DNA from: Candidatus Wolframiiraptor sinensis
Lineage (GTDB): Archaea > Thermoproteota > Nitrososphaeria_A > Caldarchaeales > Wolframiiraptoraceae
Reading direction: 5' to 3'
Assembly: GCA_023261815.1 (NCBI GenBank)
Contig: JALNKA010000007.1
Coordinates: 1 to 43,516 of the forward strand
Length of the DNA: 43,516 nt
This document shows, piece after piece, positions 5,625-37,317 of the stretch. The stretch's first letter is position 1. The number at the start of each line of letters is the position of its first letter. A model generated the notes under the pieces. The model was not told where the DNA came from and ran no database searches. It worked only from the letters and a program-made list of their open reading frames with translations. The translations under genes and the position numbers were made by a program.

Positions 5625-6632
5625 TTGACGACCTCCAGCCGAGATGAGAAGCTGGTTCTCGGAATAGAGTCCACGGCGCATACATTCGGCGTGGGCATAG
5701 CCTCGAGCGCAGGCAGGATACTCGCCAACGTGAACTACGTCTACGCGCCTAAGGCGGGTGGAATACATCCGAGAGAGGCGGCGCAGCATCATGGCCGAGT
5801 CGCGGCGAGAGCCTTGAAGGAGACTTTCGAGAAGGCTGGCGTAAGGCCCAAGGACATTGATGGCGTGGCGTTCTCGATGGGGCCTGGAATGGGGCCGTGC
5901 CTCAGGGTCGGCGCGACTGTCGCCCGAGCGATCGCGCTGAAGCTCGGTAAGCCCCTGATAGGCGTCAATCACAGCGTGGCCCACATAGAGATTGGAAGGC
6001 TTATGACCGGATGCAGGGACCCGGTGATACTCTATGTCGCCGGCGGCAATACCATGATCGCGGGATACATTGATGGTAGGTATAGGGTTTTCGGCGAGAC
6101 CCTGGATATAGCTGCTGGAAACTGCCTGGATGTCTTCGGGATAAAGGCCGGGATAGGGCCCATGCCAGCTCCGGAAGAGTATGCTAGAAGGGGTGAGAAG
6201 TTCCATCCGCTTCCCTATCGGGTTAAGGGCATGGATGTATCCTTCTCCGGCCTGCTGACGGCGGCCCTGAAGCTCATCGGCAGCATTAAGCTTGAAGACC
6301 TATGTCTCAGCATAACCGAGACCGTGTACAGCATGCTCACCGAGACTCTGGAGAGGGCTTTAGCCTACACGGAGAAGAAGGAGATACTGCTCGTGGGCGG
6401 GCTGGCGAGAAGCAGGAGGCTAAGGGAGATGATAGAGGAGATGGCGAGGCTTCATGGTGCGAGGGTCTATTGCGCGCCACCCGAATACGCGGGCGATAAT
6501 GGGGCGATGATCGCCTGGACAGGAGTTCTCCAGCTCATCGCGGGCCAGACGCTGAGCATAGAGGAGAGCAGGGTTAAGCCGAGGTTCAGGATGGATGAGG
6601 CCGAGGCCCGGTGGAGGGAGCTAGGGCTCTAG
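5625..6632 (+). CDS. kae1: KEOPS tRNA t6A threonylcarbamoyltransferase Kae1
   Basis: LGIESTAHT, GGIHPREAAQHH, VNHSVAHIE, GETLDIAAGN, GDNGAMIA. Confidence 0.96.
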   Translation: MTTSSRDEKLVLGIESTAHTFGVGIASSAGRILANVNYVYAPKAGGIHPREAAQHHGRVAARALKETFEKAGVRPKDIDGVAFSMGPGMGPCLRVGATVARAIALKLGKPLIGVNHSVAHIEIGRLMTGCRDPVILYVAGGNTMIAGYIDGRYRVFGETLDIAAGNCLDVFGIKAGIGPMPAPEEYARRGEKFHPLPYRVKGMDVSFSGLLTAALKLIGSIKLEDLCLSITETVYSMLTETLERALAYTEKKEILLVGGLARSRRLREMIEEMARLHGARVYCAPPEYAGDNGAMIAWTGVLQLIAGQTLSIEESRVKPRFRMDEAEARWRELGL

Positions 6633-33248: not shown

Positions 33249-33587
33249 TTGGGCCGTAAGAGAAGGAAGATCGTGAAGAAGGTGATTAAGCCGTTTCCGA
33301 AGCTCTTCACGTGCCCTATCTGCAATGAAGTTAGCGTGGCGGTTTATCATGAGGAGGGGTCGGATGCTGCTAGGGTTGCATGCGGGAGCTGCGGAGCCAG
33401 CGCCGAGGTCAGATGGCTTCCAGCCTACATGCCGGTAGACGCCTACGCGGAGTTCTACGATATAGTGACCGGTGCTAGGAGACCTCTCGAGCAGCTCATA
33501 CCTCAACCGGCCGATGAGCCTTCCGAGGCGGCTGATCCAGGAGAGCTATCCGGCGCAGAAGCTCAGGATCAGGGTGAAGCTCCTTGA
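33249..33587 (+). CDS. elf1: Transcription elongation factor Elf1
   Basis: MGRKRRK, PKLFTCPIC...CGSC, PVDAYAEFYD, acidic tail. Confidence 0.93.
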   Translation: MGRKRRKIVKKVIKPFPKLFTCPICNEVSVAVYHEEGSDAARVACGSCGASAEVRWLPAYMPVDAYAEFYDIVTGARRPLEQLIPQPADEPSEAADPGELSGAEAQDQGEAP

Positions 33588-33787
33588 CTATGTCAAGGTC
33601 AGGAATGATGTCTTCGAGTTCTGCCGGTTTTACGCGAGGTTCTTGGGGCATCGCTGGCCGAGAAATTAAGGACCGAGATATACCAGATTCTCAAGGACGC
33701 GATATCATGGTGGTTCCAGAAGCTGGAGGTGGAGGGATGACGAGGAGAATTTTCATAAACACCGCGTGAAACTCTAAGGTGTTCAGC

Positions 33788-33807
33788 TGGTGGGCTCAAC
33801 GGGATTT
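33788..33807 (-). other. tRNA 3'-end-like fragment (possible att scar)
   Basis: Minus strand reads AAAT-CCCGT-TGAGCCC-A-CCA, i.e. partial T-loop, T-stem, acceptor strand, discriminator and CCA. Confidence 0.45.
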
Positions 33808-33830
33808 CATGGTGGAAAGGTGACGATGAG

Positions 33831-34821
33831 GTGCCTTGGAAATCACGATTAGAGCCATACAGAGAAGAAATACTTCGTCTTCATGAAATAGGCTATTCGA
33901 TTAAAGTAATCAGAGACTGGCTTAAAAACAATTATGGACTTAGCGTTTGCAAAAACACCATTCGAAATTTCATAGCAAAACAAAGATCATTAAGACACCA
34001 TGGAGATACCAAGAAGTTAATGTACGAACTAGGATTGCTGCCAAGATTAACAGTTTATTCTAAGAGACCATTTGATCGCACAAATGAGTTACCATACTAT
34101 TGCGGATTTTCCGAAGATTTTAATGTAGAACGATATCATCACCAAATACGAATAGCCTCTGGGTCGACATCCAAGCTTTATAGCGTTGTCAATGAAGCTC
34201 TTCCGACCATATGGACATATAATATTGGTACCAACCTTTAAGAAGAGGTTTAAGGTTTTCACTCTGCAAATCACAATATTGCTCGACAGATCCTTTGAAT
34301 TCCTAGCCAATTATAAGGATGATAGGATTACCACAATTAAATGTTTGAGCATGGATGAAATGTGGAAGTATCTCGCTGGGCTCATTGATTCAGAGGGTTC
34401 AATAAGTGTGCTGATAAACAACCGTAAGGATTACTATTATCCTATTCTCTGCATTCAAATGAAAAATCAACAGATCTTACAATGGCTTGAAGAGAATTTC
34501 GGAGGGGGATTTTATCCCGGTGACCGCCTTGCCAAATGGCATGTCTATGGTAAAGAATGCATAGAGTTGTTGAAAAAGTTGGAACCAAAGCACATGGAAA
34601 AATTAACGAAGCGCTCTATAATTCTAAATAACTTGAACGACCTAAAAAGGGCCAAACATTTATTAAAGCAATATCAGCAACTTGTGGAGAGACAAAAAGC
34701 GGGATTTCAACTTTTCATGCGAAAAGTAGCCGAGAGCAGGAAAACATTTACCTTCTCCCCCCTCCCTTTTCCTTCCAAACAATTAATTAGTTCTTCTGAA
34801 CCCTTTTATGTACGTGATTAA
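33831..34821 (+). pseudogene. HTH + double LAGLIDADG homing endonuclease, split by a 2-nt frameshift near 34167-34170
   Basis: N-terminal HTH (SRLEPYREEILRLHEIGYSIKVIRDWL), degenerate first motif (PYYCGFSEDFNV), second motif YLAGLIDSEGSI; the two tracked ORFs join as GST/HPSFIALSMKLFRPYGH. Confidence 0.85.
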
Positions 34822-35550
34822 GCTTTCTAGCATATTTGGGTTCTGCTCTGCTAATGTTCCCGTGACAATCACACTTGCGCCTGCCTTAATTATTTCATTA
34901 ACCTGTGTGATATCCCGTATTCCGCCGCCCACTATTACTGGTATATCCACAGTATTAGCCACAGCACGAATTATTTCGGCAGGAATCGGAGAAGGAGCCC
35001 CTGAACCCCCCTCCAGATAGATAAAACGCATGCCTATGTACTGTGCAGCTAGTGAGTAGGCGACCGCCACTTCAGGTTGATTTTTTGGGAGCGGTAACGC
35101 TCTTCCCATTGAAGCAACAGCCGTCTCTGAATTAAAGACCAAATAACCCATGGGAATCGCCTCCAGATCGTATTTTTTGATTAATAGGGATGCTTGAATC
35201 TGAGCGCCCATTACAAAATACCAATCCAAGGAGTTCATTAATACCATATACCATATCGCATCAGCACTTGGCACTACGGCCTGAACGTTATTGGGAAAGA
35301 TTATTATTGGGAGACTTGTGGCGGCTTTTAACGATTTAACAAAGTTATCTAAGTCTATTTGTGAATCTATGGTTGAGCCGCCGACCATTACAGCTGCAGA
35401 GCCCTTACTTTCCGCAAGCCTTACCAATTTTTCGCCAGAGGAAATAGATACTTCATCAGGGTCAAGTAAAAGTATGTGAATAGGCCCTTTTTCGATTTCC
35501 TCAAGTAAATAATGTTCAACCTTTCCTAATTTTAGGAATTTAAACTTCAT
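34783..35550 (-). CDS. Geranylgeranylglyceryl-phosphate synthase (group II), intact, AT-rich copy
   Basis: LLDPD, MVGGST, IIFP, AIPMGYL, YLEGGSGA, IVGGGIR, IVTGT; ATG at 35550. Confidence 0.95.
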   Translation of the reverse strand: MKFKFLKLGKVEHYLLEEIEKGPIHILLLDPDEVSISSGEKLVRLAESKGSAAVMVGGSTIDSQIDLDNFVKSLKAATSLPIIIFPNNVQAVVPSADAIWYMVLMNSLDWYFVMGAQIQASLLIKKYDLEAIPMGYLVFNSETAVASMGRALPLPKNQPEVAVAYSLAAQYIGMRFIYLEGGSGAPSPIPAEIIRAVANTVDIPVIVGGGIRDITQVNEIIKAGASVIVTGTLAEQNPNMLESLITYIKGFRRTN

Positions 35551-35575
35551 GACCAAATTTTAATAAGCTACAGCA

Positions 35576-35583
35576 ATTTAAAT
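35576..35583 (-). promoter_or_regulatory. TATA box of the inverted GGGP synthase
   Basis: ATTTAAAT 26-33 nt upstream of ATG 35550, consistent with a leaderless archaeal promoter. Confidence 0.55.
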
Positions 35584-35700
35584 CTATCCACCTGGCAGTA
35601 GCCCCTAGACGGGTTTGTGGAAAGACTGAGAAGCTTTTAAGAAGATTTTTGAAGTATTGCTTGATTGACGAATTGTGGAGAGTGCTATTAAGAAAACCGG

Positions 35701-36156
35701 GTTCTCCTTAGTAGCGTGGATCACTACTTCATAATAGGCGCGCAGTCTCAGGGAGCAATCCTCGTCAGCCAGTACGGCCTAGAGGCGATACCCATGGGCT
35801 ACCTAGTCTTCGGAGGCGATACTGCTGTGGCTGCTATGGGGAGAGCGCTTCCGCTACCGCCGAGCCGCGGTGAGGTGGCGGCATGCTACGCCCTCGCCGC
35901 GCAATATCTCGGCATGAGATTCGTCTATCTCGAGGCTGGCTCGGGCGCGGAGAGACCTATACCCCCGCAGACGATCAGGGCTGTCAGGAGAGCCGTCAGC
36001 GTACCGATAATTGTTGGTGGTGGAATCAGGAGGCCCGAGGATGCGGTTGAGTCCCTTAAAGCTGGAGCGGATATAATCGTGACCGGGACGATCGCCGAGG
36101 AGAGCTTCGAGCGTCGCAGGGAGATCATTCGAGCCATAAAGAGCTTTAAGCCATAG
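35701..36156 (+). pseudogene. 3' remnant of the native (GC-rich) GGGP synthase; first ~100 codons missing
   Basis: In-frame homology starts at 35701 (VLLSSVDHYFIIGAQ versus VLMNSLDWYFVMGAQ); lacks the N-terminal DPD and VGGS motifs. Confidence 0.9.
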
Positions 36157-36216
36157 ATCTACTCGCACTTTACAATCCATAAAGCTTAAAGGTGCAGCTG
36201 AGGAGCTTCCCTTTGT

Positions 36217-37317
36217 ATGATCGATCCGCGGGTATCCAGGCTCGCCGAGCTGGTAACAGATTATAGCGTCTCGGTTAGATCCGGTGACGAGGTTCTGATT
36301 AGGGCTGAGGTTGAGGCGCTGCCGCTCGTCAGGGAGCTCGTGAGGCTCGTGGTATTGAGGGGAGGCTATCCGCACATCATGCTGGGCGATAGCCAGGTGG
36401 ACGAGATCTTTTACAGGTATGCAAGCGACCCAGTGCTGAGGCATTTATCCCCAATAGAGAAGTTCATCCAAGAGAATATCGACGTCTCGATCTCAATAAT
36501 ATCGAGTAGCCACACGAAGCCGCTTGTGAGCGTCGATCCGGAGCGGATCAGGATTAGGAGGGCCGCGAGGGCAGAGCTTACCGAGATCTTCATGCGGAGG
36601 CAGGCCTCAGGCGAGCTCCGCTGGAACGTGACGATCTACCCGACGAACGCGCTAGCGCAGGAGGCCGGGATGGGGCCGGTCGAGTACGAGGAGTTCATCT
36701 TCAGCGCGTGCATGGTTGATCGGGATGACCCGATTGAGGCGTGGAGGAGGAAGGCCGAGGAGCAGGAGCGCATAGTCGGCCTGCTCAGCGAGGTCGATGA
36801 GCTCAGGGTTGTCGCCGAGAAAACTGATCTCCTTATCAAGGTTGGTGGGAGAAAGTGGATAAACGATGATGGCCATCATAATATGCCGGCTGGAGAGGTG
36901 TTCACGGCGCCCGTCGAGGATGGGGTGGAGGGCCGCGTGGCCTTCAGCTTCCCGGCGATATGGGGCGGATTTGAGGTCGATGGAGTGAGGCTCGAGTTCA
37001 GGAACGGCGCAATCGTGAATGCATCAGCGGAGAAGGGAGCGGATAAGCTGAGGAAGATCATCGAGACCGATGAGGGGTCGAGGAGGCTCGGCGAGGTGGC
37101 CTTCGGCCTAAACTACAACATCACGAGGCCCACGAAGCAGATACTGCTGGATGAGAAGATAGGCGGAACCATGCACATGGCCTTGGGAGCGGCATACCCC
37201 GAGACAGGCGGGACTAACAAGTCCTCGATACACTGGGACCTCATCCTCGACCTGAGGCGGGGCAGGGTCTACGGGGACAACGAGCTGATCTACGAGAACG
37301 GTAGATTCCTGGCCTAA
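36217..37317 (+). CDS. Aminopeptidase, M29 (AmpS/AmpT) family
   Basis: NMPAGEVFTAP, RRLGEVAFG, DEKIGGTMHMALG, NKSSIHWD. Confidence 0.94.
   Translation: MIDPRVSRLAELVTDYSVSVRSGDEVLIRAEVEALPLVRELVRLVVLRGGYPHIMLGDSQVDEIFYRYASDPVLRHLSPIEKFIQENIDVSISIISSSHTKPLVSVDPERIRIRRAARAELTEIFMRRQASGELRWNVTIYPTNALAQEAGMGPVEYEEFIFSACMVDRDDPIEAWRRKAEEQERIVGLLSEVDELRVVAEKTDLLIKVGGRKWINDDGHHNMPAGEVFTAPVEDGVEGRVAFSFPAIWGGFEVDGVRLEFRNGAIVNASAEKGADKLRKIIETDEGSRRLGEVAFGLNYNITRPTKQILLDEKIGGTMHMALGAAYPETGGTNKSSIHWDLILDLRRGRVYGDNELIYENGRFLA

Follow-up and report, generated by a model that had tools for sequence, protein, structure and literature searches.

A putative home-and-rescue cassette pairs a LAGLIDADG endonuclease with a replacement GGGP synthase in hot-spring archaea

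Archaeal LAGLIDADG endonucleases borne by inteins and introns target conserved sites of essential genes, and splicing restores the gene product. The core archaeal enzyme geranylgeranylglyceryl phosphate (GGGP) synthase (GGGPS) makes the first ether bond of archaeal lipids. Fungal mitochondrial mobile open reading frames (mORFs) bring with them the C-terminus of a foreign gene, as described for atp6 of Allomyces and for atp6, atp9, cox2 and nad3 of Glomus (PMC3630166), and partial C-terminal duplications of cob and atp6 lie beside free-standing endonuclease ORFs (PMC6279837); intronless homing in phages is carried out by free-standing endonucleases such as Seg and Mob of T4 (PMC2330249, PMC2790892); and the synthetic drives Cleave and Rescue (ClvR; PMC6442612) and home-and-rescue (HomeR; PMC7968924) have been constructed. 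The window, which is the whole stretch of 43,516 nucleotides analysed here, is the entire contig C6 of the metagenome-assembled archaeal genome G000 (Candidatus Wolframiiraptor sinensis; 1.18 Mb, 33 contigs, 92% complete), and it holds an AT-rich cassette, lodged in the native GGGPS gene, that comprises the remnant of a gene termed orfX, a helix-turn-helix (HTH) LAGLIDADG homing endonuclease gene and a second, complete GGGPS gene.

On the evidence of sequence comparison, we regard it as probable that this is a selfish home-and-rescue cassette with GGGPS as its target. The initial annotation of the window had proposed a cleave-and-rescue cassette in which the endonuclease travels with a divergent copy of the gene it displaces. 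Comparison supported the cassette idea, relatives of the endonuclease carrying essential genes other than GGGPS in the same design, but the element sits inside its target and is closer to home-and-rescue than to ClvR proper. In the literature, supplementary files aside, no account was found of archaeal elements in which an endonuclease brings along an entire replacement gene, and 'homing endonuclease' and GGGP synthase occurred together only in work unrelated in subject.

The cassette and its carried GGGP synthase

The borders of the cassette were taken from contigs of public sequencing runs. All 20 of the 20 runs that hold all or part of the stretch are hot-spring metagenomes, and in three of them, from three studies (X4, X5 and X9), a cassette unitig was present together with a contig joining 33582 to 35704 (the joined form being defined by contigs that skip 2121 reference nucleotides, with the sequence between the joined ends not reported). 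The block that the initial annotation had correctly recognised as AT-rich, and had put at ~1.9 kb, by these contigs measures 2121 bp, and the native gene resumes at 35704, in the contigs and by comparison with relatives, instead of breaking at 35700/35701 as first proposed. The GC content is 0.34-0.45 across ~33800-35700, apart from a single 200-nt window at 0.505, and 0.50-0.64 on the flanks. Cassette unitigs, which in X4, X5 and X9 run from 33553 or 33597 to 35733, overlap both flanks by ~30 nt, as does that of X2, and flank unitigs, such as 35704-36162 at 99% identity, are common to both forms. Word depths of flank, cassette and joined form were 221, 114 and 88 in X5, 194, 54 and 115 in X9, and 17.5, ~7 and 10 in X4, the flank being close to the sum of the two forms, although contig depths are not shares of cells. 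Because the run contigs agree with L034, an independently assembled JGI metagenome contig that reaches from elf1 across the cassette to the native remnant with the same junctions, the cassette spans 33583-35703, is real and not the chimera that had been considered at the outset, and is polymorphic in natural populations, where both forms coexist on otherwise identical flanks.

The complete GGGPS gene of the cassette matches PcrB (PF01884) at positions 7-219 of 226, a full-length family match, while the GC-rich native copy on the opposite strand has lost its 5′ part (Table 1); the two proteins are 58% identical over their shared 150 residues, as had been estimated by hand. Upstream of the carried gene stands a TATA-like element, a putative promoter already noted in the initial annotation, which is kept in the cassettes of G005 (a genome of the same genus), L035 and L037. 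The native remnant begins at the right half of the target site and shares 92% amino acid identity with the intact GGGPS of G002, relative to which its dN/dS is 0.04; having zero stops and this low ratio, it is undecayed and therefore fits a recent insertion. A whole-genome scan found the carried copy to be the sole complete GGGPS in the G000 assembly, and the same is true of G005. This is the pattern that home-and-rescue would produce if GGGPS is essential, as its established biochemistry implies.

A GGGPS tree of 83 sequences, including ten carried copies, placed the two window genes far apart. The ten carried copies group together as a single long-stemmed clade (SH-aLRT 100), whose sister group (support 85) consists of the native genes of G016 and G017, which represent two further genera of the family; the native genes of the window genus stand elsewhere in the tree. 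Among 5.8 billion proteins the nearest relatives of the window carried GGGPS were 98, 88, 83 and 78% identical and the next 59%, and the relatives in the protein database are labelled Caldarchaeales or Caldarchaeum. Pairwise dN/dS among carried copies was 0.04-0.08 in 14 of 15 pairs, the exception being the near-identical copies of the window and L034 at 0.24, indicating strong purifying selection (dN/dS ~0.05), and because of this low ratio the carried GGGPS is judged to be functional. At the native target site, TGGTTCATGAGCCTNCTCAAYAGC, the carried allele departs from native sequences at 10-12 of 22 nt, 3-4 of these being among the 4 central positions, and encodes VLM or ILM where native genes encode SLL. 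The carried allele is accordingly distinct at the very positions of the putative cut and is predicted to resist cleavage, with GGGPS as a presumably essential, single-copy target. Three uninvaded genomes only, G001, G010 and G013, have a different native site, ATGTCNATG.

The endonuclease that accompanies this gene is free-standing, with no intein context and with the carried target allele in cis. Full-length versions have 310-331 amino acids; an intact 330-amino-acid version is found as P0003 and in L034, and the L035 version has 310. The N-terminal HTH region gives weak Clr5 and Tc3-like matches. A profile of seven family members searched against PDB returned LAGLIDADG enzymes in 24 of 27 matches (best E 3.8e-4), and five of ten remote relatives, mostly with N-terminal HTH domains, exceed the Pfam cut-offs of LAGLIDADG_1 or LAGLIDADG_3. 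The close family is tiny, with 5 clusters in a word-indexed search, 12 representatives at E <= 1e-30, and members in 3 of 76 genomes of the class. Between L035 and G005 the endonuclease has a dN/dS of 0.10, which places it under purifying selection. The two bases missing from the window gene are present in runs X4, X5 and X9, and the occurrence of intact beside decaying copies is, by analogy, the usual life cycle of homing endonuclease genes. No Rfam family reached the gathering score on L034, L035, L037 and L039, where there was also no intron match; at E up to 1 on L035 and L040-L042, the only hits were microRNA-like matches on one L042 hairpin. tRNA genes were absent from L035, L037 and L039-L042. 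Viral contigs gave a single weak partial endonuclease match (37% over 74 residues) and no lead to a viral carrier. A distant relative of 441 amino acids (25% identity) is encoded at 1129-2451 of G017:C9 (L052/L055), in an AT-rich genome of a genus whose GGGPS is nearest the carried clade; it adjoins nucleotidyltransferase/HEPN-like genes, not GGGPS.

The initial annotation had named these two genes as the only ones in the block, and both are there, but the orfX remnant makes a third; its two matches to the L035 orfX lie at 33559-33648 (70% identity) and 33642-33713. At the left border the final 5 nt of elf1, including the stop codon, are cassette DNA, and identity with the cassette-free form stops at 33582. 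An alignment of the window with G002 and G007 and with the full-length orfX of L035 and L042 placed this junction inside a 13-nt microhomology, TCAGGGTNANGCT, and it therefore looks like a secondary deletion that took away the first third of the native GGGPS gene together with the 5′ part of the cassette. Neither terminal inverted repeats nor a target duplication were found at the window cassette ends (33583 and 35703), domain scans found no transposase domain in the three cassette genes, and a transposon or insertion sequence was rejected for lack of these features.

Recurrence, movement between hosts and parallel cassettes

When JGI metagenomes were searched with the endonuclease alignment, 15 loci were returned: six (L034-L039) with the endonuclease-GGGPS pair in a native GGGPS, three (L040-L042) with endonucleases 32-34% identical, and six weak partial matches. 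Together with the window and G005 (L029), the pair was thus found inside native GGGPS at eight loci, in at least four host lineages and in both orientations, and the two genes were never apart; a search for such recurrence beside truncated native copies had been proposed in the initial annotation. The expected order of elf1, intact GGGPS and aminopeptidase was likewise seen: in nine genomes of the window genus (G001, G002, G003, G006, G007, G009, G010, G012 and G013) and in G016 of another genus, a CLP1-like gene, an unknown gene, elf1, intact GGGPS, M29 and a KaiC-like gene follow one another. With G004 added to the nine, ten same-genus genomes have an undisrupted site; a G004 contig starts 40 nt before the site, and this contig end was not counted as a break, the site being intact and read through. 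The G005 cassette, 69% identical in nucleotides to that of the window, is inverted relative to it: elf1 is followed by the native 5′ part (ending ...AIWFMSL), the carried GGGPS and then, on the opposite strand, the endonuclease, beyond which lie the last ~80 native codons and M29.

Junctions were numbered on the native sequence as ATG (1-3), AGC (4-6), CTN (7-9) and CTC (10-12). The last nucleotide of the native 5′ part is nt 5 in L035, L037 and at the end of contig C53 of G011, and nt 9 in G005, L036 and L039; the first nucleotide of the native 3′ part is nt 7 in the window and L034, and nt 10 at the start of contig C59 of G011. All four positions fall in or at the edge of the 4-nt window CCTN. 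LAGLIDADG enzymes leave 4-nt 3′ overhangs, and such junctions would be expected if the overhangs were kept or trimmed before joining. The cassette end with the GGGPS promoter abuts the site in both orientations, but the length retained differs, being shortest in L035 and L037, 26 nt longer in G005 and ~130 nt longer in the window, and these different lengths therefore point to separate integration events. In G011, GGGPS is split over two contig ends (C53/L031 and C59/L030) exactly at the site, with no complete GGGPS in the bin; L037 is the cassette in a G011-like host, 50 of 50 nt being identical before the junction.

Host markers and cassettes were compared pairwise for dN/dS, with the native 5′ fragment of L039 left out. 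Between L036 and L037, the host elf1 and native 5′ part have 0.66-0.67 nucleotide identity and saturated dS, whereas the cassette GGGPS genes have 0.87 identity and a dS of 0.73. Between the window and L036, dS is 0.83-0.90 for the host genes elf1 and M29 and 1.78 for the cassette GGGPS. By host markers L036, which is G005-like, is closer to the window than to L037, and the cassettes reverse this relation. Because the relations of the carried GGGPS genes conflict with those of the host markers, the cassette evidently moves between species. The junction is identical in L035 and L037, whose native 5′ parts share just 70% nucleotide identity; this would fit transfer by homologous repair.

Cassettes of the same design carry other essential genes. 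In L040 (1456-4090) and L041 (2-2773), a truncated 5′ fragment of the native prolyl-tRNA synthetase (ProRS) gene, ending at ~residue 35 and ~residue 95, respectively, is followed by orfX, the endonuclease and a second ProRS gene with its own start codon, which runs to the contig end, the 3′ junctions lying beyond the contigs. In G005:C24 (L091, 746-4763), an AT-rich cassette interrupts the native deoxyhypusine synthase gene at Pfam position 225; it contains orfX, a LAGLIDADG gene and a second, complete synthase, which shares 55% identity with the native enzyme. Neither native half has been lost, and TTATG (5 nt) stands at both cassette junctions as a target duplication, which appears to be a second, independent signature of a staggered cut. 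The carried allele has HFL in place of the HHT seen in the eleven other genomes of the genus that were examined, and the carried deoxyhypusine synthase is the only complete one found in G005.

Three further loci were observed. The 32-34%-identical endonuclease and orfX of L042 (1196-2559) lie beside a ProRS gene. The deoxyhypusine synthase gene of G011 is also split over two contig ends (C24/C46) at the cassette site, which suggests that the AT-rich cassette contigs of this genome were lost at binning or that the population is polymorphic. G005:C30 (L092, 1187-5190) holds a complete HD-domain gene 83-85% identical to the genus orthologues, orfX, a LAGLIDADG gene and an N-terminal fragment of the same HD gene that is 75-77% identical; the HD-domain gene may be a fourth cargo. 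The gene pairs of L094 and L097 were rejected as cassettes, being judged ordinary paralogues (29-41% identity).

Table 1 Features of the cassette locus in the window
Feature	Position	Strand	Evidence
elf1, host gene left of the cassette	33249..33587	+	Pfam Zn_ribbon_Elf1, E 1.4e-15
Left junction, 13-nt microhomology TCAGGGTNANGCT	33569..33581		Native elf1-end/GGGPS-start region against orfX
orfX remnant (3′ part, two reading frames)	~33559..33745	+	tblastn against L035 orfX
AT-rich mobile cassette, 2121 bp	33583..35703		X4, X5 and X9 contigs join 33582 to 35704; GC profile
HTH-LAGLIDADG homing endonuclease pseudogene	33831..34821	+	Overlapping ORFs 33831-34241 and 34186-34821; 2 nt missing at 34166/34167
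Carried GGGP synthase (putative rescue), complete	34783..35550	-	ORF 34783-35556, ATG at 35550; PcrB E 4e-50
TATA-like box AATTTAAAT of carried GGGPS	35575..35583	-	Read from sequence; 25 nt upstream of ATG
Native GGGP synthase 3′ remnant, codons ~104-252	35704..36156	+	PcrB profile only 83/88-222, E 2.5e-31
M29 aminopeptidase, host gene right of the locus	36217..37317	+	Peptidase_M29, E 2.1e-93; same neighbour in relatives

Proposed mechanism and rival explanations

In the proposed mechanism, the HTH-LAGLIDADG endonuclease would recognise a conserved GGGPS site at codons ~102-106, ...TTCATGAG/CCTN/CTCAAYAGC..., and cut it with a 4-nt stagger. The cassette would then be fixed at the break, by end joining in a new host or by homologous repair (homing) where the flanks are similar. 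With an essential target, only those events would be survived that bring the cassette's own GGGPS, which has its own promoter and is 10-12 of 22 nt off the site. The host would from then on depend on the carried GGGPS, and the native halves would decay or be deleted. In the window, an inverted entry may have been followed by the deletion at the 13-nt microhomology, which took the native 5′ third and the cassette 5′ part, and then by the 2-nt frameshift in the endonuclease; the window cassette is probably a fixed, immobile relic.

Several points weigh against this reading. G000 is 92% complete, and it may have a second, unassembled GGGPS. The junction argument draws on four junction classes, each defined to ~1 nt, and the junctions on the endonuclease side are imprecise: G005, L036 and L038 have lost some of the native 3′ region, and in the window the entire native 5′ third of GGGPS is gone on that side. 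Past the endonuclease, L037 (1-2515) has genes for a hydrogenase-like Fe-S protein, a maturation protease and ATP synthase c instead of the native 3′ part, and L039 (1-2226) has those for ribosomal protein S9 and ComB and an RpoN-like gene; these unrelated genes reflect either rearrangement at the break or misassembly. The endonuclease is intact in two of the eight copies (L034 and L035) and disrupted in the other six (window, G005, L036, L037, L038 and L039). Its motif 1 lies one residue off the canonical LAGLIDADG register, and one active site may be dead; the window ORF matches LAGLIDADG_1 at E 0.0018 and 19.6 bits, under the Pfam cut-off of 23.1, and the G005 and L035 endonucleases have no Pfam LAGLIDADG match. 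Finally, orfX is multi-copy and stands also beside TnpB, and another activity could contribute to mobility.

This last point underlies the rival that survives best, which we nevertheless think unlikely: that a transposition-like or recombination activity associated with orfX moves the cassette, with the LAGLIDADG protein serving only for retention or regulation. The orfX gene, upstream of the endonuclease, encodes ~123 amino acids and has 92 relatives (clusters) in the protein database. It is sporadic and multi-copy, occurring in 9 of 76 genomes with 12 matches in G007, 5 in G005, 2 in G000 and 1 in G002 (copies are, for example, L057, L066, L071, L073, L075 and L077 of G007, L058 and L067 of G005, and L059 of G002). 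A nuclease gene follows it directly: among ten downstream ORFs scanned, four exceed the LAGLIDADG_3 cut-off, two are TnpB-like (Cas12f1-like_TNB) and four have no assignment. Both properties would suit a mobility factor, as would the conserved GC-rich stretch (0.65-0.73) that precedes orfX in the AT-rich cassettes (L035 1-268, L041 ~377-617, L042 ~863-1195). However, orfX matched no Pfam or PHROG family, gave no usable ESM Atlas match and has no recognisable catalytic domain; L034, a cassette of the G000 type, keeps an intact endonuclease but has its orfX reduced to a stump; terminal repeats were not found; and target specificity together with a 4-5-nt overlap fits a LAGLIDADG cut. The GC-rich stretch could be a structured RNA or a regulatory region; folding of three sequences only gave a covariation term of 0.17 kcal/mol. 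A second orfX remnant of G000 lies at the end of contig C13 (L095/L062, ~5808-6535) and is followed by a 187-amino-acid ORF without a Pfam family, the start of which resembles the sequence just upstream of the window endonuclease.

Somewhat less probable again is a passive xenologous replacement, in which a foreign GGGPS arrived by ordinary transfer and illegitimate recombination and the endonuclease was a mere linked passenger. The six disrupted endonucleases, the untidy junctions on their side and the left junction of the window, explicable as a plain microhomology deletion, are all compatible with such a history. Against it, the same 4-5-nt site recurs across no fewer than three junction classes and four host lineages, with the cassette in either orientation, the pair is never apart in the eight loci, and purifying selection acts on the endonuclease. 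Nucleases homologous to it have other essential genes as cargo in the same manner, with the 5-nt duplication at the deoxyhypusine synthase site. The endonuclease is also unlikely to be simply the fixed neighbour of GGGPS in the donor lineage, as the initial annotation had considered, G016 and G017, the nearest free-living GGGPS lineages, having no endonuclease at the GGGPS locus.

We find it still harder to credit that the LAGLIDADG protein is catalytically dead or a nickase, acting as a DNA-binding regulator or in a maturase-like role, and that the cassette persists through the host's dependence on its GGGPS. The displaced motif 1 (YxCG[FL]xEDxN, residues 89-98) and the weak Pfam scores speak for this, but motif 2 (LxGLxDSEGS, residues 181-191) is canonical and invariant, and the acidic residues E95/D96 and D187/E189 do not vary even among relatives with as little as 31-33% identity. 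Recurrence at a specific site and polymorphism for the presence of the cassette also argue for ongoing or recent activity. An assembly chimera joining DNA of an AT-rich organism to G000 has a negligible chance of being correct, for although the composition jumps within a metagenome-assembled genome, L034 has the same junctions in an independent assembly, unitigs of runs from several studies bridge both junctions, and the junctions lie at non-homologous positions of two oppositely oriented GGGPS copies.

Significance and comparison with known systems

If the home-and-rescue reading is true, the cassette is a natural counterpart of home-and-rescue and cleave-and-rescue drives, in which selection can pair a nuclease with a recoded rescue of an essential gene without splicing. 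It would also supply a concrete mechanism for the in-place foreign replacement of core genes, among them an ether-lipid enzyme, an aminoacyl-tRNA synthetase and deoxyhypusine synthase, the odd phylogenies of which are usually ascribed to horizontal transfer that is left unexplained. A tree of one such marker alone can be misleading, and so can a bin from which the AT-rich cassette contig has dropped out, a trap for calls of completeness and pathways; G011 serves as a warning, seemingly lacking a complete GGGPS because that contig was lost from its bin. The cassettes are further a source of predicted thermostable LAGLIDADG enzymes with targets that can be read directly from genomes, and orfX is singled out as a conserved unknown protein beside two unrelated kinds of mobile nuclease, LAGLIDADG and TnpB.

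We give even chances to a wider reading, in which the window is one member of a class of archaeal mobile elements, each combining orfX with a site-specific nuclease (LAGLIDADG, perhaps also TnpB) and with a resistant version of the essential gene under attack. Such elements would be natural gene drives in hot-spring Caldarchaeales-like archaea, forcing cross-species xenologous replacement of core genes of lipid synthesis, translation and hypusination, and orfX would assist nuclease-driven integration as a new accessory factor.

Among the known systems, the fungal mORFs resemble the archaeal cassette in having a free-standing LAGLIDADG or GIY-YIG gene inside a conserved gene, a divergent, horizontally acquired copy of the target and a native remnant. 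They differ in supplying the 3′ end only, in forming an in-frame hybrid gene and in residing in organelle genomes, whereas the archaeal cassette carries a whole gene with its own promoter, in either orientation, on a chromosome, with an orfX companion and with several cargos. No in-frame fusion to the native 5′ part was seen in the window, where the carried GGGPS is inverted, or in G005, where stop codons separate the two. Phage intronless homing is alike in that the endonuclease lies outside any intron or intein, cuts genomes without it and is inherited with a flanking resistant allele. The phage allele, however, cleanly replaces the sensitive one through flanking homology during co-infection, whereas the archaeal cassette is lodged inside the target gene and both old halves can remain. 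Compared with intein and intron elements, the cassette has no splicing part, and function would be restored by a second gene. ClvR and HomeR share with it a nuclease directed against an essential gene and a tightly linked, recoded, cleavage-resistant rescue, with the element placed in the target locus as in HomeR; they are engineered, Cas9/gRNA-based and designed for sexual diploids, whereas the archaeal cassette, known from its sequence, would be a natural, protein-guided and prokaryotic form of the same arrangement.

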